A stretch of 55,219 nucleotides of DNA, the filler included, from Sluysia triapertura (lineage: Eukaryota), in the NCBI GenBank assembly GCA_046118255.1. It is 4 parts of 4 records of this genome, joined end to end, with 100 filler letters (N's around TTAATTAATTAA, not from the genome) between each part and the next. Parts side by side here need not be neighbours in the genome. Positions count along the whole stretch, not along the records: positions 1 to 10,783 come from JBJNIA010193549.1; positions 10,884 to 21,813 come from JBJNIA010191396.1; positions 21,914 to 43,193 come from JBJNIA010261729.1; 1 more part is not named here. The stretch is one strand, 5' to 3'. The stretch's first letter is position 1; each line of letters begins with the position of its first letter. Below are positions 78 to 43,193 of this stretch, one piece after another. The position numbers and the translations under genes are program-made. The notes under the pieces are model-generated. The model worked only from the letters and a program-made list of their open reading frames with translations. It had not been told where the DNA came from and ran no database searches.

Positions 78-3000
78 CTTAGCTTGTAATTTGACATCGG
101 TAGTATTTCTTACTTCATCTATTGTCCACTGTACTATTTTTCCGGATAATTGCAAAAGATGAATTATTTCCTTATGATCTGATACTGATGATAATGAGGA
201 TGATTTTTTAGAAAATTTGTGTAATCGAATAATTTCTAAAAAATTCTTCTCTTTCGAAACTATCGCATTGAAATCTACGAATAAAAGAAATTATAAATTT
301 CATTAAACTTTTTCAAAATGGAATGAATGTTTTGATTATTTTATCATAATTTTCAGAAATAATATTGCTTGAATCAGTACTGCAACAGTGAACCATTTTA
401 GTTTATCAATAGTTTTTATTAAATTATGAATATTAAATTACTCAATTTAATTAAATTAAATTATTCAATTCACATTTGATTTTTGAATTACAAAATAAAC
501 ATTATTTTTATTGAACATTATGTTACACTTTTTTGTCATGTAATTATACCGGGACTTGAACGGTTTTAGTGTTAATCTTAATTTTAAGCGATTGAATTTG
601 TTTGTCAAGTAACAGATAGCCCTTGAATGTTTAAAATTTTGAATATACCTGTTAAAATGTTTAGAATCAGGTAATGTGAGTTTTGAAGAGCTGAATGTTT
701 TCTGTGTTTTATAATGAGTTTGATGGATTGGTGAATGTTCTGTTGATAGGTTATTGTGAGGTTTTTATAATAAAATTTTGAATTGCGAGTTGGTTCTAGA
801 ATTTATCTAGAATTTTTATCGTGCATTGGTTAGTTTACAAATAATACTATTTACTCATTATTTATTAATAATAATATTTTCGATTTATTTAAGCGTTACT
901 ACTTTTAATTGTTTCTGCCTACATCATCATCATTATTATTATTATAATAAGTTAGCATTATTTCACACTTATTTCAATCGAAGATACGAGATTGCCATTT
1001 ACAATCTTTACTGACATCTGGTTCGTCAAGCCATTGTCGACTTCAGGCTTATAAAAGCATCTTAAGAAATCATATTAAAATATTACAAATATTAAAAATA
1101 CAAAAGAAAATGTAGTACTTATTTTATTTAACAAATTAAATAATATTTATTGCAATATATTAATAAAAACTTTGCTAACATTTAATAAAATGACATGGAT
1201 GCACTTCATTAAAACATTGTTGTTGTAAAAGAGTAAGACACATAGCTAATACTTCCGGTGGTACTGTTATAATTGAAAATGAATCTTGCATTAATTCATG
1301 ATTAAGATTCGTTAAAGTATTGCCGTTGGTGGTACCAGTTAAAATTTGCGTAATTGAAAAAGACAATTTCCACTTACCACTTAATTTATTTGTTAATTTA
1401 TCATGCTGTTCCAGTAAATACTGACCAATGTTTACTTCACGAACCTTCTGTGATGCCTTAATAGGTTATTTTAATAATCATTTAATTACCAATATTTTTT
1501 GGTAAAAAAAGATTTTAAACAGTTTTTACATATCACAAATGTAAATTTATGAAAAAAGTTGAAACGTTAAATATATACCAAAAACAATAACTTTTTTCTA
1601 AATATTCAACTAAAAAGAGTATTATACTGACAAATATGCAATTACATATTTTTCAACTATCTATGAATAACACGAACAAATACATAATTATCATACATTT
1701 ATGGTAATAATCGAATATTTCCTTATAGTTTCCAACTTCATTATATATAAAATAAAAATATTGAAATAAAAGCAAGTTTGAATGTATAAAAAGCATTATT
1801 TTTTGTTTATGAAGCAAAATTCTTAATTTAAAAGACATAATTATTCTGACATCTGAAAATAAAAATAAAAGAAACGTTGTTTAAGAGAAAATTATAATCG
1901 TCATGAATTTCTAATCACTAAATATAATTTCGTATTATCACATATTTCACATACTAATACATTATATTAATGACAAATTATCCAAGGTTATTCTTGAACA
2001 GATTCAACTATTGATCAAACAAAGTGTTATAAATGTGAGAATGATAGAAATAGAACGGATGAAATAGATGTTGGAGTTTAATATAATTATTTAAATTTTG
2101 GATTAATATGAACCTTTTAATGAATTTTGGTTCTGATTTATAAGAAAAAATAGTTAATTTAATCAAACTTTTATTTCTTGATTTTTTAGTATCTTGCAAA
2201 TTTCGAGACTCAAAACAATTTACAAGTTATAATTCAAAAGACATAATATTTGTTATTTTTATCCGGTATGTGCCTTGCCTCAGTCTATACGTTTCGCCAT
2301 CTAAATAAAAATCACAGAAATTAATATCATTATAAAAGGGATAAGAATTAATTACTTTAAGTTCATTAATATTCGAATTGTTATTGTTCCCGTTCAGATC
2401 TGATGCTCCGAGACTTCTTAGGATGCTTCTGATTCTGGAGTAATTGTCAACATACGGTACAAATTCAGTATTGGGAATTATTAGTTGATCCACTGTATGG
2501 GCGTATATGCAACCGCTCCCATACTTGACAGAAATTTCATCTTGGTCACTATCGAATAAGCAGATTGCCTTTTTCATAACTTCGGTGAGTTAATAGCATT
2601 GGTAGATTTCTCTAATCGTATGTCGTATTCGAATTCATCATGATATACATTGTAAGGATGATTTTTGATAATTTCTTTCTTTCATTCACATGTTTTGGTG
2701 GTGATAACTCTGCTGTATGATCTTTATTATCTGCCATAACATCAATTAGAACTATGCATTGTGTTTGTGCATCTCGAGAAGAATTGTCATCGTCAACGCT
2801 AGTTATAATAGAATCCACATATTTCACAAATACATCGTCGACATTAGGAACTTCGAATACATTGAAAGTAAAATTATTTGAATCCGAGACGTCTAATTTT
2901 AATGCATATGACTTGAACCACCTATTTGCTATGAGTAATATCATATCAGACTTAGAATATAATTCTTTGGTTGGCTTGGATAATGCCAATTTTAATTTCA

Positions 3001-3834
3001 ATAATGTCGTGTTGATAATGTATTCAGAAGCTTGTTTAACAAAAACTTTATTTTTAACACTAACTTCAAAATGATGTATATTATTATGATCATTGCGATA
3101 CTTCTTAACTTTATTTTCTGACAAAACTTGTGAATTCAGTTCAATTTTATTTACAACTAAAATAAAAGGAAAATTCATTGGATCTGTCGAATTCATTTTT
3201 AATAAAAAATCAACATGTTGATAATTATGTTGATAATCAAAATTATTATTACGTAACAATTCATAATTGATGTTTTGCCAACTTCACTATCACCTAATAA
3301 AATGATTTTTAACGTTAACCTGTTTAAAGCCATAATTATCATCTTACATAATATAAGTACGATTACAACGATAAAAATTTTTAAAAATCTTTTTTTGAAA
3401 ATCAATTTTTTAAAAAATCTTTAAAAATCAAATTATAAAAATTTTCAAATTATATATATAGTGATTTTTAGTTTGTTTGGATTGATTGTCCAACCAGAGA
3501 TATATACAAGTAATGATAAAGTTTGCTCTCGTTGGACAGCTAATAATAATCATTGTTGATGAATTGATTGATAGATGAAATGTAAATTAATGCAGTCACC
3601 ACTGGTAGTGAGAGTTACTAAATTAATCTCAAAATAAATTAATGCGAATAAAAATAATGAAAAATGATAATAATAATAATAATATTACATTATTATTACT
3701 ATTATTATTATTATTATTTATAACGATTAATTCCATAAATTTCTTAAATTCTTTTGAACAAGAACTTTCTATCACATCTTCAACTTCTCAACATATTTAG
3801 AATTTGAAAATAATAATGAATAACAATGTTAATG

Positions 3835-3870
<36 letters not shown>

Positions 3871-6800: not shown

Positions 6801-8234
6801 GAATTCTAATAGGTTTATTTGATTGAAGTTATTGACAATTGAATTTTACCAGGTTTATATTTAATAAACCTTTACTTTAGTTAGTTATTTTCACTAAATC
6901 AAAAGAGGAGAAAGTTTGAGATTTTAAATTTATAAAAAGATTTATAACATTTCCATCTCTTACATCAGGGATAAGTCAAGACTCAACAAATACATAAAAT
7001 AATAATGAAATATTTATAAAGTATTTATTACTACCTTATGTAAAATGCCCATTATTCGAAAAACATCTATAGATTTCTAATTAGGCTTAACGACTAGTCT
7101 ATTGAAAAAACATTAAGCACAACAACTTTAGCTTCTAGTAATTTTTAGCGCATTTTAAAAACTAAGTATTGATCTAGTACTTGCAACAAAAGCAAAGTCA
7201 ACATAAATTTATAGCATGTAAAATTTATAAAAATCGAAATGCAAAAGCACTTACAAAGGAATTATATCACGTTTATTAAAAAGAATTTCATTTGAATAAT
7301 TGCTTATCTGTGTATAAAATTATTCAAAAGTTTGAATGTCAATCATTGATAAATAATTAAACTTTGTATCATAATTACTTTCAATTTCACTACTAAACAA
7401 ATCAAAAGATTAAATCGTTGTATGTCAATTTTGAATCTCTACTTTATTCTGGTGCCGACTTACATAAATATTACCTGTATTAATGTATACTTCAGACTTT
7501 AATTTTGCACCTTATTTGAAAATTTATAAAACGTTTACTTATATATAAAAGTTATAATGTAAGTTGCACTTCATAGAAGTGTACACTTAGCATGCAAACG
7601 CTACATTATTGAGACTACATGATGTTGAATGCGATAATATTAAAGCTGATTCCATAGACGGTGACCAACATATTAGTCATTCATAATGATCATACTTTGG
7701 TATTTCAAAGAGTTAATCATTCAAAAGTTTTTACATTATAAAAATGTACTAATAAAGAAAAAAATAAAACATAAATATGATCTTCAAGGTCAGAAATAAA
7801 AAAAATTAAAACAAAATTTTACATTATTGAAATATTATTTTAATATTATTAATATTTTGCTGACACTATTATTATTAAAATATTAATATTTTATTTCAAA
7901 GGTGCAAAATCATCACAAGTTTTTAGTTTTATATTTTTAATGTAATTATAGTTATAATTACACAACACGATTAATCGATTCGAAGTTTCGCTGAAATAAC
8001 TTTATTCATTTGTAAATAAATCTAGATATAAGTAGTAAAATATACTTTTTAAATTTTTTCGACCGTATATATAGTGGCATTTGACATTACATAAGAGTCT
8101 TGATAAAATTCTTTTGATTATGCTTGGAAAATTAATGAAAATAAATTCTTGTATTCGAAAGACTTTATAATATTGTTGATTTTTAATTTGATTTCAAAAA
8201 AAGAACAAAATAAATAATTACATATAATTACATA

Positions 8235-8312
<78 letters not shown>

Positions 8313-9512
8313 TAACCTTATTACTGACTAATTGCCAAATAGAAGAAATTATACGGTCAGTCATATCAATTACATAAAATCCATCGATCCAAGCCATAAG
8401 AATAAACAGTAACCTATATCTAGCTTTACTCAATATTGATTGATTATTGGAACCTAATTGTTGCTGCGAATTTATTTCTATAGAATTAAATGTTTTGAAT
8501 AAATTCGAAAGAAATTCAGTTGGAGTCATAAATTCACGATAAACGAGAAAAAATTCATATAACAATCCAGAATTAATAGCTCCTCTATAATTTGAATTAA
8601 TATTAATATGTGTTTTAAATGCTTTTAGAAAAGTAAAATTATATTGTATAAAACATGTATTATAATTTATTATTAGCTTAAAATTTTTATAAAGTTTTCA
8701 AATTATATTAATTCCTATAAAAATAGTAGCATCTAGAAACAATTAAATGTTATGTAAAAGAAAGATCTACATAGTTTTAGATTGATAAACAAACTCTTAT
8801 TTAGAATAGTTCCAATTTGTATTTTATAATAATGTTGAATGTAGATTAACCAAATATAAATTGAAAAAGTAACGTATCCTTGAACATCGTAGTTTTAAAA
8901 ACTCGGTATTTATTTTTGAAATTTTATATTGTGATTTAAGAAAATTTGTTTTTACAATCATTATAACTTTTGAAAAATATCACAATAATAAAATTTTATA
9001 TTTATCGAATATATTGTTAAATTTATCCATTTGCATTCACAGGGAGTTAGATGAACTTTCAAATTTTGTATGAAAAATCGATGAAGCTTGCAATTTTCTC
9101 AATTTCTGATGGTTCAATTAATAAAAAGTAAGCTTAACTTCAATTAAAACATGATTTTTTTCTTGTCTACGGTTTTTATTTTTAAATTTTTTTATTATCC
9201 TGAATTATTTTGAGGACACATTCAATTGAAACCTCTTATAAAAAGATTTTTAACAAAGTGGTTTTTTATAGCACGAACGATTCTTCAAACTAATTAATCA
9301 ATGATAATTAAAATTTAAAACTAAAAACTAATTAAAACTTACTTGATAAACAAACAACCAATAAGAATATCAACTGTAACTGTTTGTAAATTATTTATCA
9401 CAAGTGTTGACGTTGAAGTGGTACCATCTGTAGTTGTTGATGAAGTTTTGTTAGAATTATACAAAGTACGTATAAATTTGATATTTACAGAATGATATTC
9501 AACTATAGTTAA
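78..9512 (-). CDS. Ras-family guanine nucleotide exchange factor (REM + CDC25 domains), partial spliced gene
   Basis: Five GT-AG exons with compatible phases and no stops: 9512-9343, 8584-8317, 6024-5905, 1456-1180, 274-78. REM-like peptide LQTVTVDILIGCLF..YEFFLVYREFMTPTEFLSNL..RLLFILMAWID. CDC25-like peptide PPEVLAMCLTLLQQQCFNEVHPCHF..IIHLLQLSGKIVQWTIDEV. First exon not resolved; gene continues beyond position 1. Confidence 0.85.
2227..2577 (-). CDS. hypothetical 116-aa ORF, distal part of cassette A cargo
   Basis: ATG-initiated ORF directly downstream of the Rab7-like frame; protein-like composition but no family recognised. May be a broken continuation of the upstream frame. Confidence 0.3.
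   Translation of the reverse strand: MKKAICLFDSDQDEISVKYGSGCIYAHTVDQLIIPNTEFVPYVDNYSRIRSILRSLGASDLNGNNNNSNINELKVINSYPFYNDINFCDFYLDGETYRLRQGTYRIKITNIMSFEL
2612..3333 (-). pseudogene. Rab7-like small GTPase copy: intronless, frameshifted, internally deleted, with unrelated C-terminal extension
   Basis: ATG at 3333: MALNRLTLKIILLGDSEVGKTSIMNCY (G1 P-loop). Frameshift near 3255, then VDFLLK joined directly to STDPMNFPFILVVNKIEL..NNIHHFEVSVK..VKQA, matching the Rab7 pattern DPENFPFVVLGNKIDL..NNIPYFETSAK. The DTAGQE/switch II region is absent. Nested in a RasGEF intron. Confidence 0.8.
3487..3655. promoter_or_regulatory. cassette conserved region, copy A (hairpin + GTCACCACTGGTAGTG box)
   Basis: Inverted repeat 3487-3499/3526-3538 (12/13). 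The whole block is visibly homologous to 16842-17015 (shared aaattaatgcagtcaccactggtagtg..gttactaaattaatc). A TATATATA run at ~3450-3460 lies between it and the cargo ATG. Regulatory role is inferred. Confidence 0.65.
7420..8015 (-). mobile_element. possible Penelope-like retroelement remnant
   Basis: Broken frame YVGH...RIQHH reminiscent of a GIY-YIG nuclease, plus a TGAATAAAG..GCGAAACTTCG motif near 7980-8010 resembling Penelope terminal motifs. Highly decayed. Confidence 0.25.
8236..8310. repeat. (ATT)n microsatellite at start of RasGEF intron
   Basis: Perfect ATT repeat just after the donor at 8316-8315. Confidence 0.95.
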
Positions 9513-10883: not shown

Positions 10884-10884
10884 T

Positions 10885-10925: not shown

Positions 10926-11410
10926 ATGATGATGATTATTTTGATAATGATGATGCTTACTGAAATTGTTTCTTCTTCAAGACATCACTAAGAATCACTC
11001 AATTTTTGAATCTTGAATTTGTACCACATGAATATATTTGTAACTTTCTCAGCAGAAACACCAAGTAGTATTGGCAATACGTAATTTAATTCCGTATATT
11101 TTAAAAGACGAGGTCTGCTGATACCAACTTGTAACGAAGATATTATAGAATATTTACCAAATTAAAAACTTCCAGATATTTTATCAAGCCATATTTAAAG
11201 TAACACATTTAAAACACACATTTAGCATTATATTTTTTATAATATAATTTGTTGTGAGTTATGTTTTGGACCACATTCTCCAATCACGTTTTGTAAAATG
11301 TAAGCACACTGAATCTATACCATTCGAACTTTATCATAAAATATTTTTTCGACAATCGAACATATGTCATTATAATAACTTAATAAATAGAAATAGATTT
11401 TACTTTCCAG

Positions 11411-11938
11411 GTACCTGATTTATCTATTAGCAAAACCTTATTAATTTTAATTGGTTACTCTCATAAATTTATTGGAATTTATATAAATATTATTTTAGCT
11501 GCATCTCTAGAAGCATGGTCAGAAAGTTTTGGAAAAACTCAGCAACACCAGCAACAACAGATTGAATCTTTATCTTCTGTAGTAGCAGCAGCAGTCACAG
11601 GGTTTAATAATAATAATAATAATAAAGATAATAACAATAACAATAATAACAATAATAATATTTATAATAATAATTATAATAATAACAATGGAAATAACAA
11701 AGGAACTCTTTCTAGAACCAGTACCATAAAAAGATCATTTTATAAGAGTCAGAATCAGAATCAGAATCATAATAATTTATCTATGTATCCATATCAATTA
11801 CCTTATAATATCGGAGTCATACCAACAATTACTGTTACAAATCCATTTGGTGATATCGAATTTGGTATCCACCCCAATCAGGCACGTGTTTTTAATTCTT
11901 GTTACGATGTTAGTGGTTCTTATTTTTGTAGATTCTGA
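11411..11938 (+). CDS. last two exons of an unidentified gene (Gln/Asn-rich C-terminus)
   Basis: Exon 11411-11453 after ttttactttccag, 45-bp GT-AG intron 11454-11498, exon 11499-11938 ending in TGA. Spliced product VPDLSISKTLLILIAASLEAWSESFGKTQQHQQQQ..polyN..IPTITVTNPFGDIEF..YFCRF*, stop-free for ~160 codons. Missed by the ORF track. Confidence 0.7.
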   Translation, partial: VPDLSISKTLLILIGYSHKFIGIYINIILAASLEAWSESFGKTQQHQQQQIESLSSVVAAAVTGFNNNNNNKDNNNNNNNNNNIYNNNYNNNNGNNKGTLSRTSTIKRSFYKSQNQNQNHNNLSMYPYQLPYNIGVIPTITVTNPFGDIEFGIHPNQARVFNSCYDVSGSYFCRF

Positions 11939-13074: not shown

Positions 13075-13740
13075 TCAAAATGCCATGCATAAAAATCTTC
13101 TAAACTTTCTTCAACTTCATTATGATTTAGGTCTTTCGATATAAAATATGTGATCTATAAAATCCACTCGTAATACAGATCATTGTTACATCATCCCATT
13201 ATTCTTTTATCCAATTACACATTAAACCATAAGAGGCTGTTTTCAAAACTCCACCCGAAGTAAAACTATGTGATTCTTTAGTTATATCCATTTAGTCAAT
13301 TTTTCTCGTAGCTTTTTTTGAATGATCCAATAGTTGTAAAATCTTGTAAAATCTTGGTTATCACTGGAACAAGATTTAATTTTATTTGGGACTTTGCTGA
13401 ATTAACTATTACCATTGATAACGGACTACAAAATGAGTTGGGTCTTTATCTACCAATCCATGATGATTTTACTATCGATCCAATCTTTGCGATTTACTTT
13501 AACAACTATTCCTGTCTGAAAAACTTCTTTCTTTGGAAATGTTTTTGTTTTAAATATTATTAATGATGGTAAACACGTAGAACAACAGTAGAGTGAGTTT
13601 CTTCGTGGCCTCTTCTTGTTGCAATTCTGACTGATTTCGCACCTTTTGATTGGACAGTGCAATCGTACAGGAACTTCTTTTATAATTTCGATCAGAATGT
13701 TCTAAATTTCCCATCTAAAGGTAACTTTCGTACAACCGAA
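13075..13740 (-). mobile_element. pogo/Tigger-family (DDE_1) transposase remnant
   Basis: FKTKTFPKKEVFQTGIVVKVNRKDWIDSKIIMDW and HSFTSGGVLKTASYGLMCNWIKE*WDDV are characteristic pogo DDE_1 segments; stops and frameshifts present. Confidence 0.75.
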
Positions 13741-14311: not shown

Positions 14312-15479
14312 CATTTTTCATACTGGATTTATTTATTACTATTTGTCTGTGTCTGCTAATATTCACTTTTTAGTGATTTTTCATCAATATTCACATTTAT
14401 GCCTAATCCGTAACATTTTCTGAGTGCTAATTAAGTTTTATGGATTCACTTTTTTACAATGCACGTAATAGTTTGCAAAGATGTGTTTTTAAAGTAACAA
14501 AGTGAATATTCGACGATATTTTTAAATAATGTAAAATAAATGAAATATAATTTTATCCTTTTATTATCGAAATTTTATTTAAATTATTTTTATTTTAAGT
14601 TTTTATCGATTCTTTCTAGGAATATTTTCTGACCTTTTGATGAAAAATGATTAATTATTATATCATTTTTTAACACGTGCGTTGCTGAGCGACATAAACA
14701 CATACTTTTACATTCGAGATAACTCGTAGTTGGCAGGGAATGCATTAACAATGATTATGTAATTGTTTTGCTATTTTTATAATTTTTTATTTGATTTTAT
14801 ATAAAATTAAAATAATAAATTTAATTTTAAATTTCTTTAAAGTTATGTAACTATTATTTACATTTTATTGTGGAATTACATTTTTAGTAATATTTTCACT
14901 ATCTTCTGCTATTTCTTTGCCCAGAACTTATAATTTATCTAAATAACATTATTATTCTTTAATAATATTATAATATTTATGAAATATGTATTCGAAAATG
15001 AACATGGAAGAAAATATTAATTATATTGTTTGTTGTGGTTTAACGTTATTTGAAAGGTTTATTTTTAAAATTAATTTTTTGAAAAGATTTGATTCGTAAT
15101 TATTAAAAACATTTAAAAATTAAAAATCGAATTGTTAATTTTTAAAATTTTAGAAACATAAATAGTAAAAATCAAAAACAAAATTGTCTAAAAGCCATTG
15201 TTCGCTATCTAAATAAAAACCATAAGTTAATATAACGTTTATGAAAGGATAAAAATTGTTTACTTCGCATTCATCGAGCATAACAATGATATCGGTTGTT
15301 GATTTGATTTCATCGGCTAGTTCTGACGCTTAATTCCCATCTTTTTCAATCGGTAATGTAACAATTTGACTTGTTGATAAATACAACTGTGACAACTTTT
15401 CTTCACTCTCTCATTTACACAACTCCACATTTCTTAATGCAAAATTCGAAAAATCTTTTACTTTAGTACGATTTGGTTG

Positions 15480-26433: not shown

Positions 26434-26516
26434 CAAAAATACATTTGTAAAAATACAAATTTAGAAATTATGATTTTAATTTTAATTTTAATTTTTGTAA
26501 AACTAACTTAATTAAA

Positions 26517-27540: not shown

Positions 27541-27990
27541 TTTTCCTTAATTAAGTTAATTAAGATTTTAATTAATTAATCAATTTTTAGACTTAATCTT
27601 ATTTTATGTTTAAAGGTTCTAAAATTATTTATTAGTTTATAAAGCATTCAGGAGGCTCTAGATGTTTTCACCTTCACTTTTCTGATTTCCTTTTCTACTT
27701 TGCGTTAATTACTACCATACTAGATTTATCCTTAGTACCAATAACAATTTTAAAGATTTTAAGATTTTAAATATTTCATAAGGTTACTCAAAGATCTTAA
27801 ATGCTTATCAAGGTTTTAAAATTACTTAAAGGTTGATAAGTACTTAAATGATTTCAAGGTCAAGAAGTTCTAAGGTGTCTTAATTCTTCTATAGGTTTTC
27901 CAAACCTCCACAAAAGTATTTGGAAATCCAAGGTGTTTTTCAGATCTTATCATTCTTACTCCAATAATGTTTATAATATTCTATCCATCA
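27541..27990 (+). repeat. dispersed ~450-bp repeat (distal arm of cassette E)
   Basis: Colinear with 33697-34194: ttaattaagttaattaagatttt.., attcaggaggctctagatgttttcaccttcac.., aatgtttataat..atccatca. Confidence 0.9.
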
Positions 27991-28965: not shown

Positions 28966-29279
28966 AGTAATAGTATTTAAAGAAACAATTCAAAAACTAA
29001 TTTTGTTGTTTTTAGTATGAATAAAATTATAAAAATTATTTACTGTCTAATAGTAACAGTAATATTTAATTCTTTAATGCTTCATATTTAAATATTTATA
29101 GCTTTACATGTTAAAATTTTAAAAAGGTTTATATCTAGCAGTAATCGGTATTGAAAATAATCATTATACTTTATTAATAAAATATGATAAAAATAGTACT
29201 GAACAAAAATTATAAATATTTTATAGCTAAAATGTATAATTGTCTTGTGAATCCAAATATTACATGTTCATATAATTAT

Positions 29280-30933
29280 GCACAGGATCAGCAGCAGTAA
29301 TAGTGTCAGCAATAGCATCACCAGGTACATCATCAATATCCTGATCTACCATATCATCATTGAGAAGATCTTCAACTTTAATGGGCTAGAACAAATTGAC
29401 TTCATAAGGAAACTGTACATGAAACTCCTACATCTTCAATAACTGGAACTACCATGTCATCATCAATTTTATCGCTTTTGACTTTAATGCGTCATCATCA
29501 AATTCATCAAACACTACGACAGGAATTTGCCCAGGAATGGAGATAACATCAATTTCTAACTTCAAATCAGAAGTATTAATTTCATCATAATTAAGATGCC
29601 AAAACGTAAAATCTGCATAACTAGGACTAGGTACAGAACTTAATCTGGTACCTAGTACAAGTGAGAGGCAGCTAATCACAACTTGATCATCATCATCTGG
29701 GATATTAAAAGTGAATTGATGGCTAAGTGATGAAAATAACATAAATTTCATTAGTTGAAGTATAATCCATCCATAATGACCTAAAAGGCCAGTGGTTATG
29801 ATCATGGAGAATGTACCTCAATTAACAAGATTTGCATGTCCGGCCGCAGTTCTTACACACAATTTTAATAATAGCAAAGATGTATTGTACATTAAATTAA
29901 AATCTTTGCCCGAAGGCTGTGCAATAACGATATTAACAACCCAACGAATGAGTTTTGATTGCCGTTCAAAAGGGCTGTTGTTCGTCATCATTTGCCAGAT
30001 CAGAATTTGCAGGAAGAACCGGAACATGGGCTGCAGTTGGGACAGCTAGCGGAGTGATTGTTGGCTGACGGGTACCGGGACAAGATATGATTGGTATACA
30101 TTCTCTAAGACATTTTAAGCATTCCAATAGAAATGTCTACCAGCAATTTGAAAGTCTTAAGGATACTAATGTTATGAAGGTTCTTTGTGCCAATAACCGG
30201 GAAAATTAAAGTGAAGATTCTGACCTTACGTCTGACGATTTTGCTAAGATGTTGGGAGAATAGTGAATATTTCACAGAGTTTTCCTTATAAATATCTGAA
30301 TAAGTATCGATTTTATCAAACGGCGTTTTAACATCAATAAGAAATCATTGTACGAGAATAGTAAGTCAGGCCGCTGACGTTTGATATGATCAGGAACATC
30401 AGATCGGTTACAAATGAGGCAGCACTGAGCATCACAGTTAACATAAATTCCATTATTTCAGAAGAAAGAAGCGATACGTCCAAGTGCTAAGTTGTGGAGC
30501 AAGTTAATAAGGCTGGAGTTTAAAGGGCAGTGGTTAAGAACGTGAGGTACAGATTCGCACTTAATAGAACATCGCCGACAGTTAATAGGGAGATTTGATT
30601 TCAAGTTTCTCGCAGTGAAATTTAGAGGTGAAGTATTTGTTCGGGCTTTGAGCAAGAAGAAGAAAGTGTTATCAGGGATTTCGGAGCTCATGAGCATTCT
30701 ATTCGTAAGTCGAGACTGTGCGAGAGAAGAAGTCAGGAGAGATTGGCACTCCAAGGACTGCCATCTTGATGAAAGGCCTGAGTGACGTTATCCTTTTCAT
30801 CTTTGGTGAAAAAAATGCAGAGAAAGAATTAAAGAAAGAAAAAGCAAACAAGACTCGAATATCGTGTTTGGATTTAAGAGCCTTGCAGAAGTCTCTAACG
30901 TTGAACCACAGAGTTGGCTTGGAGGGATAAATT
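29280..30933 (-). mobile_element. RLE-type (R2/NeSL-group) non-LTR retrotransposon, 5'-truncated remnant
   Basis: KARTNT..CRRCSIKCESVPHVLNHC..LHN (CCHC knuckle + RHN-like motif), then QRPDLL..IDVKTPF..KY..FPVIG (PD..D.K restriction-like endonuclease) at ~30100-30750. GC-richer broken frames continue to ~29280, where membership in the element is less certain. Confidence 0.8.
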
Positions 30934-31001
30934 TCAGCCTCGTCTAACAATTTTTAGATTATTATAGTCAACCATACCAAATGACACTTTAGGCCTTAAA
31001 C
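30934..31001 (-). repeat. second copy of tRNA-unit leader plus first 7 nt of the tRNA-like sequence
   Basis: Reverse complement gtttaaggcctaaagtg..ttgactataataa..ttgttagacgaggctga aligns with 48672-48739. Confidence 0.85.
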
Positions 31002-32965: not shown

Positions 32966-33696
32966 CAAATTTAATATTTTTAACAAAATTAGTTGTTTAT
33001 TTTATTTTAATAATAAATAAATAAATAAAATTAAACATCTTACCCTAAGTATGGATTTTCATATCTATCATCATCATTTTTGTCGTCGTCATTGTTATTA
33101 TTGGTGTTATTATGTTATTGTGTTGCAAAAATTTTGAAATCTTTATTTTATACTCTCTCATCATCCAATTAATTCACAATCTCACAACCAAACATTCTCT
33201 CACACAAATCATCCAAGCCTCTGTGAGAATCAAACCGACAATAACAAATTTGACAATTACATGGTACGGTCTGTCTAACTTTATTAGGTACAAAGCATAG
33301 AAATCTGATATATTATCAGCCATAATTTCCTTTTCAGTCTATTTTTACGTAAATTACTTCCCTATTAAAATAACAATCAGCAATACTGTTAACATACATA
33401 AAATAATGAATTTAATTTCACTTTCTATTTTTTAATTAATTTTCTATTTTTCACACCTAATCTTCTAATGAAAAATGTTTTAAGGTTCTTATTGTCAAAC
33501 GAACCATTTTACAAACATTTCGAGTTCACTCATAGATTCTCCTCTTTCATAGCAATCGTCTCATATTCCATTCATCATATTTGCATCAATCGGTCAAACC
33601 ATACCTTCATCGAAAGGTCTTTTCAAAACAAATACAAACACAGTTTCAAATTTAACACTGCATTCTGCATTCAAAAGTTATTCACAAAACCGTACG

Positions 33697-34194
33697 TTTT
33701 CTTAATTAAGTTAATTAAGATTTTTAATTAATTAATCTATTTTTAGACTCATTCTATGTTTAAAGGTTTTGTTGAGGTTCTAAAGTTATTTAATAGTTTA
33801 TAAGGTATTCAGGAGGCTCTAGATGTTTTCACCTTCACCTCTCTGATTCTTTTTTCCACTTCTTCATGTTAATTATCACTAGGTTAAACTTATCTTTATT
33901 ATTTTGAACAAAGATTTAATTTCTCAATCATTTTAAAGATTTTACACACTTCATAAGGATACTTAAGTATCTCAAATGCTTATCGACATTTCAATAATAC
34001 TTAAGAGTTACTAAGGTCTTCAATGATCCAAAGGTTCTAAAAGTTTTTCAAGTCCATCTCAAGCTTCCACAAGATCTCAAACCCTTATATATGTCTTTGG
34101 AACTCCAAGGTATTCTTTAACTGTTAACATTATTATAGATGTTTTCTTTATGATGATTCTTATTTCAACAATGTTTATAATGTTAAATCCATCA
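33697..34194 (+). repeat. dispersed repeat, second copy of 27541-27990
   Basis: Colinear alignment by eye with several long exact blocks. Confidence 0.9.
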
Positions 34195-34264
34195 CTTGTA
34201 TCAGTTTTTCCCTCATTTTATGATTTTATATATTTTCTTTCATTTCCGGATCCATAGTTGGGCA

Positions 34265-34462
34265 ATCCCAACAATTTCATTGAGACATAATAATAATGTA
34301 TACAGAATTCACAGTGATAACAAGCTAAGTGATAGGTTGTATACTGTTTTTGTCTCAAAAATATACAACCAGTTACCAGATAATGTCAAATTGCTGGAAG
34401 ATTATGAAATATTTAAGAAAAAATCAGAGTTCTTTCTGTTTCAGAAATACTATGGTGAATGA
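34265..34462 (+). mobile_element. L2/CR1-group LINE extreme 3' coding remnant
   Basis: SLR..SDRLYTVFVSKIYNQLPDNVK..FKKKSEFFLF* matches the R.F....WN.LP...FK..LK..LF terminus. Confidence 0.6.
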
Positions 34463-35725
34463 TTTACCATAAGCGCTTTTGAGTACTTTCGCAGTAGATT
34501 TGATAAAATGAATATCACACAGGTAGATTGACTAAAAGACATAAGTAGAGTACATAAATTTTAAAGATTTAAATATAGTTTTATTAGTTCTTTTTAAAGA
34601 TAAATACTTTACATAAAAGGAGTTGCACTAGGTTTAGCAGAAGTATTTTGAGTTAGTATTATAATAAAGTAACGTATAACTTTTAAATTTTACATTATAA
34701 TATAGATAATTTTGTTTGTGATGTACAAATACAATCTGATAGTTATTACGTTTTAGTTTTAAAGTATTAAAAAGCTCCTAAACAAAAGGTATTTGATGTT
34801 ATGATCAATTCTAAACATGCAGTTATTAAATTATCGAATAATTTATTGTTTAAACCCGGTTGGGAGATGTTTTTACATTTAAGCAACTCTTAATTTGAAA
34901 TTATTTATATTAATTTGCCATTCTATAAGTGAGTTGGATCTAATTATAAAAATAAAATTGAAAGTATAAAAGAACATTATGTGTTTGTCACAATAACAAT
35001 TGTTTCATTATTAGTTGTTTAGTGTTTATAATTGTTAGCTTTCTTGTATTATGATTGAAGTGCCCGAATAAATGACTCTAAGTTAAATATATTTAAAGTT
35101 ATGCACAACATTAAGCTTGGTTATGACTTTTAAACATCATTTTAGCTTTTGTGTAGCGTTTTCATTAAAAGTTATAAAGTTCACAATCTTAATAATCATT
35201 CTAACAAGCACAATCTCAAACACGATTGATTTAAGTATATTTAATTTTGATTTTGTAATTTAAAATTCTTGCTGACAGAAAATCAGTCATTGTGATATTA
35301 ATTATTCATTTTATGTAATTTGAAACCTTTAATTGCTTTGCACTTAAAATGAATATTATTTGTGTTTGTACTATTATTATTTATTTATTTATTATAATTA
35401 TTATTGTTGTAAATCAAAAAATGAACTACATAATAAATCTATATGGTAAACTCTATGAAGTGTTGATGTATTGGATAAAATAGTCTACATGTAATCAATC
35501 AAATCTAAAAGTAGCTTACATATTACAATTTGTGTTACAAATCTGGGTGATACGTTGGATAAAATCTAAAGATAGTTTAAAAACAGCATACAATAAATTA
35601 ATATAGAAATTAAGGCGGGTGTAAATTTACTATTAAAATTTTCAATAGATCGTACTATATAAAAAGTAAATAGCCAAATTAATGAGAAAATTCTAGAAAA
35701 TTAAGCATAAAAAACGTTTACTTAC

Positions 35726-38700
35726 ATTATCATACTCCTCAAATTCATCACGTTCTTTCATTGAGCAATTACGACCAATAGGACTAACGTTTAACATACC
35801 CATTCGAAATTCAACAAAAGTACCACGTTTACAAGGTAATTTTAAATTCGACAAATAAAATAATATGTAATTGATTAACTCTTGTAAATTATCATCTCCC
35901 AATTCGTCTGAAATACTCTGAAAAAATTGTATAATAATCGAATGAAACATTGAGCATAAATTCAAAAATTACTATTTGAATTACTATTTTAAATAATGTA
36001 ACCTAATTTTACAACTTAATAATTTTGTACAATAATGTCATTAAAATTAAATTTGTATATGTATATGTATTTGTATTTGTATATAAATATTTGTATATTT
36101 CGCTTTTCTCAACAAAAGAATGAAAGTTATCTGGCAAAATTTTATCATTATCTAAATTATGGTCATTTTCCATCGAATAATTTATTTATTAACGTACAAA
36201 TATTCTTTGAAATTTATTTCTGATAAGTTTCCACAAGACTTTATTATATCATTTCGTTGTTTTATCAGTTTTTTTCATTATACTTTACTTAAAATTTTTT
36301 CATCAATATTTCAACAACTTAATGAAAAATATTCCTTAAATTCTATCCTTTTGTGTAACTTTACATAAAAAATCATAATTATTAACAAAAATTAAATTTC
36401 ACTTAATGAAAATATGCGTAATGTAAAATTAACTTTCTGGTAAATTTTTTATGAATGCATACATTTATATCAAATACAATTTTAGCAATGTTATAATTAT
36501 ACAATTTCTCGAAAATAAGACAGGGCTGATATTCACTTTTTTGGGGGATTTGTCCTATTTTCGTCATCGAAAAACAAAGTTACAAAGTAGAGAATTATGA
36601 AATTTCTAAATAAATAAAAAACATGATGAATAAACACGTTTTATGTTTAAAAACCACTAACTATAAATCATTCAAAAATGAACATGATCATGTCCTCTGA
36701 AATGTATTTCAAGTCAATGGATACCAAGGTTCTGCAGAATTTTCATTTAACTGAATTTCTTTATTTTAAGTCATTCTCATGGATATTATGTGACAAAGGA
36801 GAAATTCTTTGATAAAATCTCACTTGGAGGATTGTCTGATAGTGAATCACATTTACAATCTTGTTATAGTCAGTCACAGTCAGAAAGTGAACTAAAGAAT
36901 GCTTTGACAATGAAAGTATCTCAGAATGTATTGTAATTTAAATACAGAAGTATATGCTAAAGAATGCATTGGACGCCTTTTCAAAACATTCATTGACTTT
37001 TATTAGGTATCCGAATCATCTGGCAACTAGGTCTTAAATTAAAATCATCCTGGAACATCGCCATAGGTCTTATTTTCAAGGCTGGTTTTATTTTCGGGGA
37101 AACAGAGTACCAAAATATGCTTAATAGAAAATTCCAATATGCAAAATTATTTTGAAGTTTTAAAAAAATATAAAAAGTATAAACAAAAGTATATAAATCA
37201 AACCGTTTTAGATATCAAAGATCCATATTTATGGAAGACATTGCCATTTTCTGAGAATATAAATTCAAATGTCCGAACAACTAAAAATTGCAGTAAACAT
37301 TGAATAAAAAAGTACTTTTTTAAATTCTTATTAAATATATCAAAATCAAATTATTGCTTCTGAGAATAATTTCTTAGTAAAAATAATATTTTTAGTAAAT
37401 TGAAACATCTTATAATTTGAAAATAAATTTTATAAAAACGAAAGAAAAAAGTAGAATGTAAAAAATATAGCTGCAACTCACCGCACTATATTAACAAGAG
37501 TATAAGCTGGGGTTCACAAGGAAGCGCCAGAAAAATCAAAATATACGAATTTTTCAAAATAGAAATAAAAAACGAAGACATACCAAACATAATTAAAAAA
37601 TGATTGCATATGAAAGTATAAATAAATTATAATATGTAAACAAGTTTTGTAGAATGAAATTAATAAATAAAAATGGCCATGTTATATTAAAATCATTTAT
37701 ATGATATTAACTGCAAAAAAAAATTAGGCTTATAATAATTTGACTATAGCGAGAAATTACGAATAAAAATTATTTTAGAATGAAATTAAAAAACTTATTG
37801 GAGATGGAATATCAGTTGAAAATACCGTAACTATTTTCTTATCCGCCATTTTCTGGAATCCGCTAATTTATTTTTGCAAAAATGAATGTTTAATTTGGAT
37901 TAATAATATATTTTATTAATTATAATATATTATTCATTTTTATACTCTAAAAGCCGCCATATTCTAGAAACCGCCACCTTTTTCATAGTCCCGTTTTTGA
38001 CGGATAAGGAAGTTGTTACTGTACTATATGAGTTTTGTATGTACTACTTCACAATTTTTAATATTTGACAATTTTTATATTAATTTTATAGGTTGATAAT
38101 TATTTTGAATATTACACCTTTTATAATTATTTGCACAAATAGTTCATAATTTGTTGGACATGGATCTTAAATTTTATTAGTGAATAATTTCTTCGACAAT
38201 GAATGTACAAAATAGAATAGGTGTCACATTAATTTCTGTTTACCTATTTTAGTAATTAGAGTATATAAATTTAAAAAATTTGCAAAAAAAACTGTTCATT
38301 TAATTGTGGTCAATTTTGTTATACACTCCATTCTTGTATTAGTCTTGCTTTGTTAATAAACAAAACTCGATAAGAGTTTAATTAATTTGTTGGTGTAGAT
38401 TTTAACTTCATTTAACTATTAAGACTTATACTTCCATCTTTACCAACAGATTCGAATTTAGAACTAAACTCCACGATATAAAGACCATTGATTTTGCGAT
38501 ATAATTCGTTACATATTGAAGTAAAGCTTCCGAAATGTCCTTTTACAACGATAAAATATTACGAAACTACCAAAATCGTAGTATGTAAATCGTAAGGGTT
38601 ACTTAGAAAAATTTTTAAATACTTTTAAAATAATAAGTTAAATTTTTTATAATTACTTATTGAATATGTTCTACTTATTTAAAACCAATAATTATTAAAT

Positions 38701-39040
38701 AGGCAAAATATTGTAATTTAAATAATTATTTAAAATTACGCAATGGACAATTTGTTGCATTTTAATTTTTGTGAAAAAAATTTAGATACATAAAATGTAA
38801 TATATACAAAATGTAATATTAAATTACTTTCAAAACCCCCTAGTTGTTCACATATTTTACTGTAATCAGAACCTCCAACTACTCCGACAGTAACTTTTTC
38901 ATTTGCTTTGTTTAAAATATTAATCATATCGTTATCAATGAGCTAAACATAAAATATATATAACATAACCATACCCTTCGAGGTTTCGTTAATGTTCCAT
39001 CAACATCAAATAAAAATATATCTTCTTTCGAATAACTCAT
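35726..39040 (-). CDS. PMM2: phosphomannomutase (eukaryotic PMM, HAD family), 5' part
   Basis: Exons 39040-38975 ([22 protein letters not shown]), 38942-38828 (..[16 protein letters not shown]..), 37280-37204 (..FIFSENGN..), 35917-35726 (..[33 protein letters not shown]). All GT-AG, phases 0/1/0/0 consistent. 3' exons not located. The symbol denotes the PMM1/PMM2 family. Confidence 0.95.
36500..37107. mobile_element. non-autonomous pogo/Tigger-like element in PMM intron
   Basis: Imperfect TIRs tttctcgaaaataagac ... ggttttattttcggggaaacagag|ta with a repeated gtcttattttc motif. Confidence 0.6.
37825..38021. mobile_element. Tigger/pogo-like MITE in PMM intron
   Basis: TA-flanked imperfect TIRs ccgtaactattttcttatccgcca / tgacggataaggaagttgttactg. 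Confidence 0.7.
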
Positions 39041-39399: not shown

Positions 39400-39610
39400 G
39401 TAACTTCAAGTTCTTTCCAAGCTCATTTTCAAATCATCAATAGAGTTTATGTCACGTCGACAATTCTGAAGCTCTATTAATAACAAGCTCCAAGTGCAGT
39501 AATCCATGACATTTAAGTCTGGACTTTTGTTGGGCCAATCTTCCGGTTCAATGAAATCAGGAGTAGATTGCTGAAGAAAATGAAATGAAGCCTTTGCTGT
39601 TGCCATGTTC
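39400..39610 (-). mobile_element. Tc1/mariner transposase remnant
   Basis: PDFIEPEDWPNKSPDLNVMDYCTWSLL..SIDDLK, the WP..SPDLN..D..W motif. Confidence 0.85.
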
Positions 39611-41322
39611 ATATTTGGTAATGTAAGAATTTGTGGAATACAGAATGAAAATTAAATTAAATTTTTAATTTTATTTTTTATTTATATTTGAGTTTGTATC
39701 CGTGAGACCTCTGTGACACCGGCCTTACGCACTAAAGGGTCGATGCATAGATGTCAGCGCAAAGAGTATTGGATATAATGGAGATCAAGGGAAATTTTTT
39801 TGGATAATTTTTGAGTATTTGATTAGTGCTCCGCTACGTTTAGTGAGATTAATTACTATGTTATTTTGTATTTGATCTAAAAAGATCTATAATCGACGAG
39901 TTAAAATTATTATAAATATGATCAAGACTTTTATTCCGCGAAATATATTTTAAATATTTGTAGCTATTTTATTTGGGTTTAACTTTGTGACAGAAGAATA
40001 GTAATACTACTGATCAAATGTTTTTCCATTTAAGTGTTTATAGCAAAATAAGAAAATGCGTTAATGAAATGTATATTAAAATATTAAACAAAATTAATAC
40101 GTATACAAATTAATTACTGAAAATTTTAAACTATTTTTTAAACTACTAAAACATTAAACAAAAAATCACTGCATATAGAGATTAATAATTGTCAAATAAA
40201 GTATATTAAAATATTAAACAAAATCAGCATTGATACGAATAATAATTATCAATTAAAAATTTTATAAAATAGTAGATTTTAGATTAGATTTATATTAGAT
40301 TCATATAAAATATAACTGTTAGTTAAAAAGTAAAATTTATATAGCAACTAGAAAATAAAACAATATTTATGAGAACTGTATTAAATAATCTAATAATATT
40401 ATTATAAATAAAATTTTTATAATTGTGAGTTTAATAAAATTTATATAAGTAATTAAATTTTACTATAATTTTATTGAGTTTTCGTTATATGTTAATAAAA
40501 ATATTAAAATAAACTTAATTTTTAAATACTAGCAGTTACTGTCAGTTATATGTGAATATGTAGTTGACTTTTTCCTTTTCAAATAACTTGAATACGATTA
40601 TCAAAATTATATAATGTTTGCAATTGTATTGAAAAATAACCTTAATTATTCAACAGAATAACAAATAGACGTAATGACTAAATTAAATCTCTAATTGTTA
40701 AATCGTCTATGATCTAATACTTTAAAAATTCAATACTTAAACTTCTGAAATTTTTAAAATCTTAAAATTTATGCAATTTTGTTACTCTATCATTCATTTA
40801 TATACTAATTGGTGATTGATACTAATGATGATTAATGCTAATAATGATATTTAACAATTCATAATAATATAATAATAATAATAAATTTAATATTTAATAA
40901 CCAACAATAATAATGATCATGGTAATGATAATGATAATAACAATAATGACAACAATAATAACAATAATAGCAACAAAACTTGATAATTTGTTCCTATTAA
41001 TTTCTTCATAAAGTAAATTGAAAAGCACAAACAACATTGTGATGTAGTAATTGGTTCTAGATACCGTCTTATAGAGGGCCGTACTTTGTTTTGATTAAAA
41101 GAAAGTTTATTTATTGTGATGTTATTAGGATCAGTTTTATAAAAGGCTTTGTTAAACCTTTGATCTCTGTTTGATTTATTGCTTTTCCTATGTATTTTGT
41201 AACTCAAGGAAAATTTATAAAGGTAGTAAAGTTTGGAAAGATATTTATGATTTATTTCATAACTTATAGACAATTGATGATAACAAAAAATTTCATAAAT
41301 TACATTTATTAAAGGTTTAAAA

Positions 41323-42135
41323 TTATAGACATGAAAATTGGTCGACTGTACTTGTGCCTGACTGGGTTTCCATCTCCATAGATCTGGGCCTGTTGAACAT
41401 CAAATTAGAATTAAAATGAATAAAAATACTATAAACGATATGATTATAATAGTTAAGGATATAGTAAAAAATAAATTTATTACTTTGTGTGTGTTCGGTT
41501 ACTTCGAAATTTTGAACCGGCTTGGCGTTAACAATATTGTATGGCGTAACCAGATAGACTTTGACATCGTTGGTGCCCAGAATGATATTCATTGGGTAAT
41601 GCACTTGTCGCCTTATACTGACTACAAGGTTTGGCTTGCTCACATTGTTTTTAGTTCGCTTTGGATTATTTAAATACTTTATGCAGATAGCATCGTCATG
41701 AACTACCTTGGATACATTACTTTTAGTTCGTTTTGCAATATCTACATGCTTTACACTGATTACAACGTCACGAACTTCTTTTAATACGTTACTTTTAACT
41801 CCCTTTGCATCATCTACATACTTTACGCTAATTGCAATACCACGAACTGCTATGAGTACATTACCTTTAGTTTGCTTTACATTATCTACACGCTTTACGC
41901 TGATTACAATGTCACGAATTGCTATGAATACATTACTTTTAACTCGCTTTGCATCATCTACATACTTTACGCTAATTGCAATACCACGAACTGCTATGAA
42001 TACATCATATTTAATTTGCTTTGCATTATCTTTACTTCGATTTGTTCTATCAACATAAGTTGCATCGTCTTTTACACGTTCACTTTCGGGCTCATAAGTT
42101 TCCGACCGATACGAGCTAAATATGGGCTTGTAAAA
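41323..42135 (-). CDS. cassette F cargo: 271-codon open frame with 24-aa (72-bp) tandem repeats
   Basis: Stop-free from 42135 to the stop at 41323, with no ATG at its 5' end. About 5 units like VDDAKRVKSNVFIAIRDIVISVKR. The ORF track reports only the last 106 aa. Confidence 0.45.
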   Translation of the reverse strand, partial: FYKPIFSSYRSETYEPESERVKDDATYVDRTNRSKDNAKQIKYDVFIAVRGIAISVKYVDDAKRVKSNVFIAIRDIVISVKRVDNVKQTKGNVLIAVRGIAISVKYVDDAKGVKSNVLKEVRDVVISVKHVDIAKRTKSNVSKVVHDDAICIKYLNNPKRTKNNVSKPNLVVSIRRQVHYPMNIILGTNDVKVYLVTPYNIVNAKPVQNFEVTEHTQSNKFIFYYILNYYNHIVYSIFIHFNSNLMFNRPRSMEMETQSGTSTVDQFSCL

Positions 42136-42582
42136 TTACGATCTAGACGAGACATTAATTTTCAACGAAATATAGGCTTTTAAGTGTTTACTAATTGTAG
42201 CCGTTAATAAAGAATAAATTTTTAATGATTGTAGTGATTTTTACCAATGTCTGGATATTGAAATTTTGTGATTTTTTAATATGGCTGGTTTTTAGTCTGT
42301 ATCAAAATACTTAGTAGTGTATGCCAAATGAAAATTTGTTGCTCTTTTGTTAATAACAAACAAACAGTAATATATCTAATGCACATGCATTGCCAACACG
42401 TATGCAGAATTACACTTGTTAATAATAAAATTATCATAAAATGTTAGACATGTAATCACACTTGTTAACAGTAAAATTATTATGAAATGTTAAACATGCA
42501 ATCACTGTTTGTAGTGAAGGTATAATGTATCAAGCAATCAAATTCGTTTTATCATTTACACTCTTCTAAATTTTTAATGTCT

Positions 42583-42720
42583 GTCCAATCAATATGTGTT
42601 TTGGTTCTGCACTAATTTTAGTATACCCAATCAGAGTATTTGAAAGAAGGTAGGTGATGTGTACTCTGATTGGGTTGTAAATGATGCTGTATCAGTAGTA
42701 AGTAGTACTTTTAATTATTA
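42583..42720. promoter_or_regulatory. cassette conserved region, copy F
   Basis: Perfect 14-bp inverted repeat acccaatcagagta 42625-42638 / 42662-42675, followed by an AAT-rich tract and arm as in copies A-C. A 46-bp tandem duplication lies at ~42408-42505. Confidence 0.55.
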
Positions 42721-43193
42721 CGTAAGAAGGTGATTAATATGTTGTAAATAATAATTGTGATAAAAGTACTTGTGAATAATAATAACTAGAATAATAATAA
42801 TGTAGTTAATAATACACAAAATGATAATAATATTAAATTGATAAAAAGTAATAATAAGGTGATAATAATGATAGTAATAATAATAATAATATGATAATAA
42901 TAATTGTGAACAATGAAGATAATAATAATAATAACAATAATTTAATGCATGAATCCTTGAAATCTTTTTAACTATTACACTAGCTTTTCTCTTATTTGAA
43001 TCTTTAACTCTTGTACATATTTAAACGGGAAATGAAATGAAAGGTGTTAAACTTAATTTGTTAACGTCAATTAATGTTTTGTGATTTAAAGAGAAGGTCT
43101 ATGCATTAGAATTGGGGTGTTTATTTGGAAGATTGAAGTTAAATTGATTTTATAAAGACTATTGCGAAATAATTTTGTATATGTTATGATTAA

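Follow-up and report, generated by a model that had tools for sequence, protein, structure and literature searches.

The 55,219-nucleotide stretch of Sluysia triapertura DNA analyzed here (GCA_046118255.1; hereafter the window) joins four contigs with N-linkers between them, has a GC content of 25%, and carries a family of five gene cassettes, at loci A, B, C, E, and F, on three of the contigs, as an earlier note on this DNA had described. Each cassette joins a constant leader that ends in an inverted repeat to a variable, multi-part cargo that begins with an ATG in the sense orientation; the junction between the two is fixed, the leader is lost to a variable extent at its 5' side, the copies are dispersed, and no enzyme was found in them. 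Our preferred explanation, held with a little less than even confidence, is that these are non-autonomous, gene-capturing retro-cassettes, whose leader would have been joined to host mRNAs by template switching of a reverse transcriptase (RT) and moved in trans. All counts given for the family rest on the five copies inside the window.

Read in cargo orientation, the leader runs through a G-poor arm, a spacer, a TTA tract, a small hairpin, and a large CCAA…TTGG hairpin, over a length of 0.3-0.9 kb. The five leaders are as follows.

3477-3820, minus strand: leader of A, truncated at its 5' end, with a spacer, an AAT/TTA tract, a GTGAC box hairpin, and the large hairpin (3487-3538), and no G-poor arm.
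16838-17790, minus strand: leader of B, the longest, with a G-poor arm (17400-17790; 4% G), a spacer, a TTA tract, a box hairpin (16963-16977), and the large hairpin (16842-16899).
19200-19929, minus strand: leader of C, with an arm homologous to those of B and E, a TTA tract (19370-19470), a decayed large hairpin (19208-19258), and an outer edge near a 9-mer (19919-19927).
25880-26445, plus strand: leader of E, with a shorter arm, an AAT/TTA tract, a box hairpin (26258-26283; alternatively 26265-26326), and the large hairpin (26368-26433).
42610-43193, minus strand: leader of F, cut by the contig end, with a spacer weakly homologous to those of A, B, and E, a long TTA tract, and the large hairpin (42625-42675).

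The family is real in that nucleotide similarity upstream of the cargo joins all five loci. The homology noted previously between A and B is strong (3487-3682 against 16848-17049; 76% identity over 209 columns, E=7e-33), and homology also joins the G-poor arms of the three loci B, C, and E (z = 9.9, 13.0, and 6.8, with 0 of 100 shuffles in each case). Neither the truncated arm of F nor the DNA upstream of A is homologous to these arms, and A has no skewed arm at all (C 10%, G 10%), contrary to the common order first proposed. A profile of the A/B core detected E (E=2e-5) and missed C and F. In a test of 21 pairs, the spacer 5' of the TTA tract linked F with A (z = 4.5), with E (z = 3.1), and with B (z = 2.7), and the spacer of C showed no significant similarity. 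As judged from these alignments, the links A-B, B-C, B-E, and C-E are firm and the link to F is weak. The GTCAC/GTGAC box, which folds as the small hairpin, is present in A, B, and E, where it had been reported, and absent from C and F. Both tract and arm passed their thresholds in C and E only, with B and F each narrowly failing one, against a background of 0.7%.

The 5' extent of the leader varies (no arm in A, a short one in E, long ones in B and C), and its 3' junction is constant. Because the homologous blocks of the copies are 68-85% identical, the copies are evidently old. They lie on 3 of the 4 contigs and on both strands, and we infer from this dispersal and from the variable 5' length that the cassettes were mobile. 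Together they cover about 9.7 kb of the 55 kb, or about 18% of the window, with spans being estimated.

The large hairpin, which marks the family best, was recovered at every locus, as the earlier note had claimed, with the copy of C decayed. The pattern CCAAY-N28-45-RTTGG has five matches in the window, one per locus; it was chosen after the loci were known, and the count is marginal on its own (1.96 expected; 5 of 100 shuffles reach 5). The hairpins of B, E, and F are far better folded than their shuffles (z = -6.2, -6.6, and -5.1), and those of A and C are not (z = -1.3 and +0.7). Compensatory changes occur at 6 of 14 pairs. In the alignment, 90.9% of cells are paired versus 81.4% in shuffles (0 of 500), with slid-partner controls at 46% or less, a statistic to be read with the caution that five related sequences may beat shuffles without selection and that palindrome correction, too, can make arms more alike. 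Pairing of each 5' arm with its own 3' arm ranked second among 120 pairings, and in B the arms agree at 17 of 18 positions despite a badly broken cargo. The arms are themselves palindromic and lie, inverted, about 25-40 nt apart, with loops of 21-30 nt that are only loosely alike. A covariance model of the five hairpins found no further strong copy in the window, the best outside match having E=0.055.

Past the hairpin, similarity ceases within about 10-15 nt: none of the ten post-hairpin pairs is alike, the A/B pair included. What follows is coding-like, as had been proposed. A sense open reading frame (ORF) of at least 115 codons starts within 600 nt after four of the five hairpins, as against 8% of window positions, and the window has 16 ORFs of this length (0.35 expected from local shuffles), of which the cassettes hold 11, with 8 in sense orientation. 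In A, B, C, and E, an ATG with at least 20 codons first occurs 144, 170, 204, and 83 nt past the hairpin, respectively, and opens the cargo; the cargo of F begins at an ATG 469 nt past its hairpin, behind two shorter ORFs. The cargo is always in the sense orientation. No match to a transposase, RT, or Rep was found in three frames of the cargo regions, in line with the first impression that the copies carry neither transposase nor RT, nor was there any integrase or capsid match in the cargo frames, and a PHROGs search returned unnamed low-complexity matches only.

With this evidence in hand, it is scarcely credible that an ordinary repeat, some microsatellites, and pseudogenes with no relation to them came to lie side by side at the loci by chance. 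TTA tracts do occur everywhere in this 25% GC genome, and what ties C and F to the A/B core is no more than the pattern or a weak similarity, yet coding-like sense sequence lies behind all five hairpins and the hairpin pattern is found nowhere else in the window, which largely refutes the idea within the window.

The cargos themselves are as follows.

2615-3342, minus strand: first cargo of A, Rab7-derived, with its ATG at 3342/3333, a P-loop (Rab7 residues 5-29), a frameshift, residues 95-174, and then about 125 unassigned codons.
2230-2589, minus strand: second cargo of A, with a sub-threshold CCCH zinc-finger match followed by a C-terminal peptide common to B (2293-2366).
15150-16677, minus strand: cargo of B, with its ATG at 16677, a 126-codon orphan ORF, several frameshifts and stops, a RING-like Cys/His pattern seen by eye, and the same 3' peptide as in A (15201-15274).
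18480-19003, minus strand: cargo of C, with its ATG at 19003, a Ski/Sno Dachshund-homology fragment (18729-18836), frameshifts and stops, and an estimated 3' limit.
26517-27244, plus strand: cargo of E, with its ATG at 26517, an ORF of 18-codon repeats, one frameshift near 26860, and coding-pattern substitutions.
41326-42155, minus strand: cargo of F, with its ATG at 42155, a frameshift or 29-nt intron, and an ORF of 24-codon repeats.

The Rab7 origin assigned to A was upheld by matches (E=1e-8 and 3e-4) to residues 5-29 and 95-174, which lie in two frames about 13 codons apart. The start of this cargo corresponds to the native N-terminus, and residues 30-94 are missing and with them the switch region. 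An Atlas search with residues 95-223 of the A ORF gave scores of 0.81-0.87, with small-GTPase clusters among the named matches; this GTPase-like assignment is a lead only, with no PDB or Pfam confirmation. A single-sequence model of the ORF was unusable (predicted local distance difference test, pLDDT, of 41), and a homologue search with the long ORF of A retained 0 of 98 candidates, a weak negative given that the word index missed even Rab7. In the second cargo of A, the CCCH match falls below the cut-off (E=0.0015), and the ORF had 0 matches among 1.84 billion representatives. The cargos of A and B had been described as unrelated, which is true of their middles. Both end, however, in a common in-frame peptide (DNA E=1e-5; 14 of 30 residues identical, E=7e-5), so that a common 5' module and a common 3' peptide surround differing central parts.

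The remaining cargos are less readily assigned. The RING-like pattern of B, a resemblance by eye, gained no Pfam or PDB support; the first ORF of B retained 0 of 113 homologue candidates. The C cargo, not assigned in the earlier note, matches the Ski/Sno domain profile over its C-terminal third (Pfam E=5e-6, above the cut-off), with no match for the 68 codons upstream. An AAT tract beyond this cargo was considered as the cassette end and rejected, as it is probably the tail of an opposite-strand fragment of a long interspersed nuclear element (LINE): the region between C and B (17960-18240, plus strand) has a fragment, with no Pfam match, that resembles a CR1/L2-type LINE C-terminus with an AT microsatellite tail. 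The tandem-repeat ORFs reported in E and F were confirmed and had no informative database matches; the cargos of B, E, and F are thus without detectable relatives. The best Atlas score for the F ORF was 0.77. Its repeats were modeled as a beta-meander with a pLDDT of about 70-80 (mean 50 overall), and this model had no fold match at E<=0.001.

Frame breaks differ among the copies, with many stops and frameshifts in B and C and one break each in E and F. Reassignment of a stop codon was ruled out, as the breaks mix TAA, TAG, and TGA with frameshifts and the host exons are clean. Tiny introns were likewise rejected as a general cause: among seven hand-checked candidates, one restores the frame, a 29-nt GT-AG stretch that could join the two frames of F.

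Some of the cargo nevertheless looks to have been selected as protein and not passively carried, judging by the frames of A and E, which stayed open during divergence. In a neutral-decay simulation, 7% of runs left the 96 Rab-like codons of A free of stops once amino-acid identity had fallen to 70%, and 0 of 200 did so at 50%; the 223-codon ORF never stayed open; the simulation assumes that the parent of A was an ordinary Rab7, and C was excluded because its start sequence already held stops. The repeats of E have a ratio of nonsynonymous to synonymous substitution rates (dN/dS) of 0.33, with 22/8/33 differences at the three codon positions. A coding-type bias of GC1 over GC3 was detected in 6 of the 10 cargo ORFs tested (z = 2.6-3.2).

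This coding signal also bears on a first alternative, which we consider unlikely but well worth weighing, namely that the leader is a non-mobile host promoter or 5'-untranslated module that segmental duplications and ectopic recombination have carried to new places, where it drives fast-evolving, stage-specific chimeric genes, many of them now pseudogenes, and that the inverted repeat is a double transcription-factor site. CCAAT and TATA are promoter motifs, and inverted CCAAT-like boxes and TATA-like runs lie in and around the large hairpin. The distance from the hairpin to the first ATG of substance (83-204 nt at loci A, B, C, and E), the coding-type base bias, the single frame breaks of E and F, and the fact that mobility hallmarks were not found at the loci would all suit such a module. 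Protein binding alone, however, does not predict locus-specific compensatory changes; the copies are dispersed and not clustered, one of them inside another gene; and a promoter duplicated among unrelated genes would hardly be expected as densely as five times in 55 kb. The module scored at background in a bacterial promoter scan, whose bacterial model is not relevant to this host.

Under the retro-cassette reading, the leader would be the 5' part of a retroelement-like transcript and would supply both a structured signal and expression signals, the latter being the CCAAT-like boxes and TATA-like runs. An RT encoded elsewhere would switch between the leader RNA and co-packaged host mRNAs during reverse transcription, joining the leader at the hairpin to a near-5'-complete host mRNA. 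Further switches would produce mosaics such as A, with its Rab7 piece, second domain, zinc-finger-like piece, and the peptide in common with B. With the leader driving expression, some captured ORFs would evolve fast while selected to stay open (A and E) and would then decay (B and C), so that chimeric genes would arise and die on a scaffold that moves. In support of this reading stand the homology among the leader parts, the loss of similarity right past the hairpin, the varying 5' extent of the leader against its constant 3' junction, the dispersal of the copies with A between exons of a host gene, the native-like start of the Rab7 cargo, the ends that A and B have in common around differing middles, the hairpin arms that covary within loci, and the open frames of A and E.

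Several points weigh against this reading, and the main weakness is that the loci carry no direct retro hallmark. No pair of long terminal repeats (LTRs), no poly(A) (no A8+ run at any cargo end), and no convincing target site duplication (TSD) was found. The TSD search gave nothing for A and C, its sole candidates in B and E were AT-rich matches of 7-11 nt, and the end of F is off-contig; cassette ends in this search were undefined and the copies old. No polypurine tract (PPT), in the sense of a purine run, was found at the cargo end of A, B, C, or E, and a single purine run lies about 220 nt beyond a second TTA tract of F. A TGG resembling a primer binding site (PBS) in A and B is CGG in E, and the TGG site pairs inside the box hairpin. 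No whole cargo is common to any two copies, and no autonomous partner with this leader is present in the window. The parent genes lie outside the window, which makes the intronless state given in the earlier note presumptive, and with host exons of some 200 nt and longer, a single exon could account for the Rab7 piece and likewise for the Ski piece. Were transcription to start at the CCAAT/TATA-like signals near the hairpin, the RNA would lack the arm, a point for which the model has no explanation. Among wobble pairs, neither strand is favored (2 versus 2), so that the hairpin may act as DNA. As for selection, that argument would lose strength if, as is possible, A descended from a Rab paralogue that had diverged beforehand, and the F repeats show no purifying selection (dN/dS 0.97; 32/30/17), so the evidence for selection across cargos is mixed.

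The same observations bear on an explanation by eroded transposons of known kinds, in which the leader is the one surviving end of LTR-flanked retrocopies minus the 3' LTR, of Helitron/Helentron derivatives, or of Pack-TIR/Pack-MULE elements that captured genomic DNA. In favor of this, which we regard as unlikely though a serious contender, the age of the copies may have left second ends unrecognizable, and cassette sizes of 1.5-2.6 kb are within the Pack-MULE range (PMC6431247). The palindromic hairpin arms recall the subterminal inverted repeats (subTIRs) of mite HINEs (PMC4067079). TTA tracts flank F on both sides, the second of them after the cargo (40779-40990, minus strand) and followed by a weak match to the hairpin model (E=0.43); this is possibly a decayed further module. 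Yet none of ten comparisons of 5' with 3' regions across the five loci revealed an LTR pair, a terminal inverted repeat (TIR), or any other complex direct or inverted repeat, the direct-repeat match of F being the TTA tract alone, with flanks that do not match (z = 0.4 and 0.4). Capture at the DNA level also does not predict a sense, ATG-anchored cargo in each copy.

Helitrons were judged by a 3' hairpin of 16-20 nt about 11 nt before a terminal CTRR and by a 5' TC, and Helentrons and HINEs by 12-15 bp subTIRs near both termini plus a 3' stem-loop. At 16963-16986 in B, on the strand opposite the cargo, a CTRR-type tetramer does follow the box hairpin after 5 nt; however, it is internal, as the A/B homology runs more than 150 nt past it, and no such tetramer follows the box of E. 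Conserved Helitron/Helentron ends were not found at the loci. A search with an arm matrix and the covariance model recovered the hairpin arms only as adjacent pairs (one extra in the leader of F) and none at the cargo ends, the 3' ends included. From the earlier note, then, the idea of a gene-capturing family with a common noncoding region and exchangeable cargo stands, whereas membership in the Pack-MULE, Helitron, or Helentron classes is not supported, the TIRs and TSDs it proposed looking for being nowhere convincing at the loci. A hammerhead core was absent from the loci, with a single window match at 5826, outside them, and an Rfam search returned a tRNA-like match only and no ribozyme at the loci.

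Further features that may be related to the leader or the cargo were as follows.

27527-27990, plus strand: block Z, downstream of the E cargo, with a second copy at 33680-34194.
33680-34194, plus strand: the second copy of block Z, here called H, which follows a C-rich stretch and a TTA tract and has no hairpin and no cargo.
21914-22450, minus strand: possible sixth arm, G, at a contig start, with 5% G, the 9-mer of C at its outer edge, and any cargo off-contig.

The two copies of block Z are 78% identical over 462 aligned nt, and a perfect palindrome with the TTGG/CCAA motif lies at 34257-34272, about 60 nt past the second copy. The possible arm G aligns weakly, and to C alone (z = 3.0, 1 of 100 shuffles), and is not detected by the arm profile. 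The same 9-mer stands at the outer edges of C (19919-19927) and G (22442-22450); it resembles the starts of hAT/Tc1 TIRs, and no partner was found for it. G adjoins a pogo-like fragment (22440-22790). Strongly skewed C/G stretches at 451-950, 21000-21430, and 33100-33680 have no hairpin or cargo and weak arm similarity at most; the extra skewed regions (451-950, 21000-21430, and others) were rejected as further arms, reaching z of about 3 at best against single arms.

The host is an animal, as the Ski/Sno domain, which is animal-specific, occurs in the C cargo. Two exons in the same orientation flank locus A, one a RasGEF_N match (8221-8697, E=8e-11) and the other a weak RasGEF match (3-290, E=0.084), in keeping with its reported position inside a RasGEF gene. 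A phosphomannomutase gene (35717-39040, minus strand) has one 32-nt intron and two introns of 1.3-1.6 kb. Its 3' exons are absent from the window, so E and H may lie antisense within one very long intron of this gene. A database search with a phosphomannomutase exon gave distant matches and no close relative; the best had 79% identity but covered 42% of the query, and the others had 71% or less. At the end of contig 2, a GC-rich Meis/PKNOX N-terminal exon (21600-21813, minus strand; GC3 0.74; Pfam E=5e-17) is probably foreign to its AT-rich contig, a chimeric join with DNA of another animal, which would suggest that the organism is a parasite. A 183-codon poly-Asn ORF (11387-11935, plus strand), with no Pfam match above the cut-off, is probably a host exon.

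A parasitic host would suit one more alternative, that the cassettes are integrated segments of a multipartite replicon or polydnavirus-like system, with circles made from the common region, the hairpin as origin or integration motif, and the cargo expressed in another cell or host. We hold this to be very improbable. Multipartite single-stranded DNA viruses carry a conserved nonamer at a stem-loop apex; the CRESS-type nonamer is common here (43 window matches) and at no large-hairpin loop apex. Flanking direct-repeat junctions (DRJs) were not found at the loci, nor was there any Rep, integrase, or capsid match; the module had no exact 29-mer match in prokaryote genomes, none in a phage collection, and two short and weak matches among plasmids. 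Several cargos are broken, and a 32-nt host intron speaks against a wasp. On the other side, there is a common region with one ORF per unit, a strong strand skew in the arms, altered signaling modules in the cargo as expected of mimics, and the foreign GC-rich exon as a hint of a parasite; the arms, about 25-40 nt apart, also recall the J1/J2 motifs of polydnavirus host integration motifs (HIMs), which lie about 50 bp apart (PMC10025437). Beyond the common region and the hairpin, no test came out in favor of the multipartite replicon that the earlier note had offered as its second option.

The window has other repeats as well. A non-LTR retrotransposon remnant (29200-30940, minus strand; zf-RVT) stands next to DNA that is similar to the start of a tRNA-like element (48733-48803) and its flank (matched region 48674-48803), and a site-specific insertion into a tRNA-derived repeat is possible. 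Ordinary DNA-transposon remnants are a Tc1/mariner-like element with 73-bp inverted ends (47756-48544), a short inverted-repeat element (44229-44279), two DDE fragments (39409-39651 and 13453-13701), and a piggyBac-like end at about 25008.

The combination of a shared leader with differing borrowed cargos points to an undescribed route by which host genes are copied into new chimeric genes. If the density of the window held genome-wide, the family would produce orphan and chimeric genes on a large scale, always capturing at one fixed point, and the conversion of host mRNAs into genes by a mobile element could be tested across hundreds of natural replicates; were the window typical, cassettes would occupy a sixth of the genome. 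A bolder version, which we rate as quite improbable, is a new kind of high-copy genetic system in a small-intron, possibly parasitic animal, in which the hairpin-terminated leader is a dedicated vector that systematically captures host signaling genes at their 5' ends, expresses them, makes of them enzymatically altered mimics that evolve under selection, and perhaps mobilizes these as separate units to act in cells of the animal itself or of a host.

A full-text literature search, with most subscription papers out of reach, found no system with this layout. Pack-MULEs and Pack-TIRs are likewise non-autonomous units of 1-3 kb with captured gene fragments (PMC8277862, PMC6431247). Gene-capturing mobile elements are, however, rare in animals as described, where most Pack-TIRs exist as single copies (370 cases in 100 genomes; PMC8277862); in the window, by contrast, about 18% of 55 kb is taken up by five units, and no TIRs or TSDs were found. 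Helitrons, Helentrons, and HINE/DINE-1 elements also combine hairpins, a microsatellite, palindromic short repeats, and capture of gene fragments (PMC4067079); in the cassettes, the inverted arms are adjacent and internal, with no conserved terminal TC/CTRR or subTIR pair. The proviral segments of polydnaviruses, with their HIMs and DRJs, are similarly dispersed units with a short common inverted motif and host-derived genes (PMC10025437), in contrast to which the cassettes show no DRJs or viral machinery, an apparently non-wasp host, and partly decayed cargo. Penelope-like elements and Terminons share the capture of host genes by retroelements (PMC6431247), whereas no hammerhead core at the loci, no RT, and no telomeric repeats were seen here.

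Closer parallels come from template switching. Partial, multi-gene retrocopies formed in this way are described for LTR elements in animals, where, as here, the cargo is chimeric, a non-autonomous element supplies transcription, and the copies often lie within genes (PMC5131818). Those retrocopies have recognizable LTR-element sequence on both sides, in contrast to the cassettes, with no LTR pair, conserved PBS, or PPT and a junction fixed by the hairpin. In the fungal MINE (WEIRD-MGL) chimeras, as in template-switch chimeras of the U6-L1 type, a constant noncoding 5' component is joined to variable 3' components (PMC2104539). There, the 3' part is a LINE and most copies have TSDs of 10-20 bp; here, it is an ORF derived from a host gene, TSDs were not seen, and truncation affects the 5' part instead. 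Although they fail the terminal tests of both, the cassettes would by analogy work most like LTR-mediated retrocopies and MINE chimeras.

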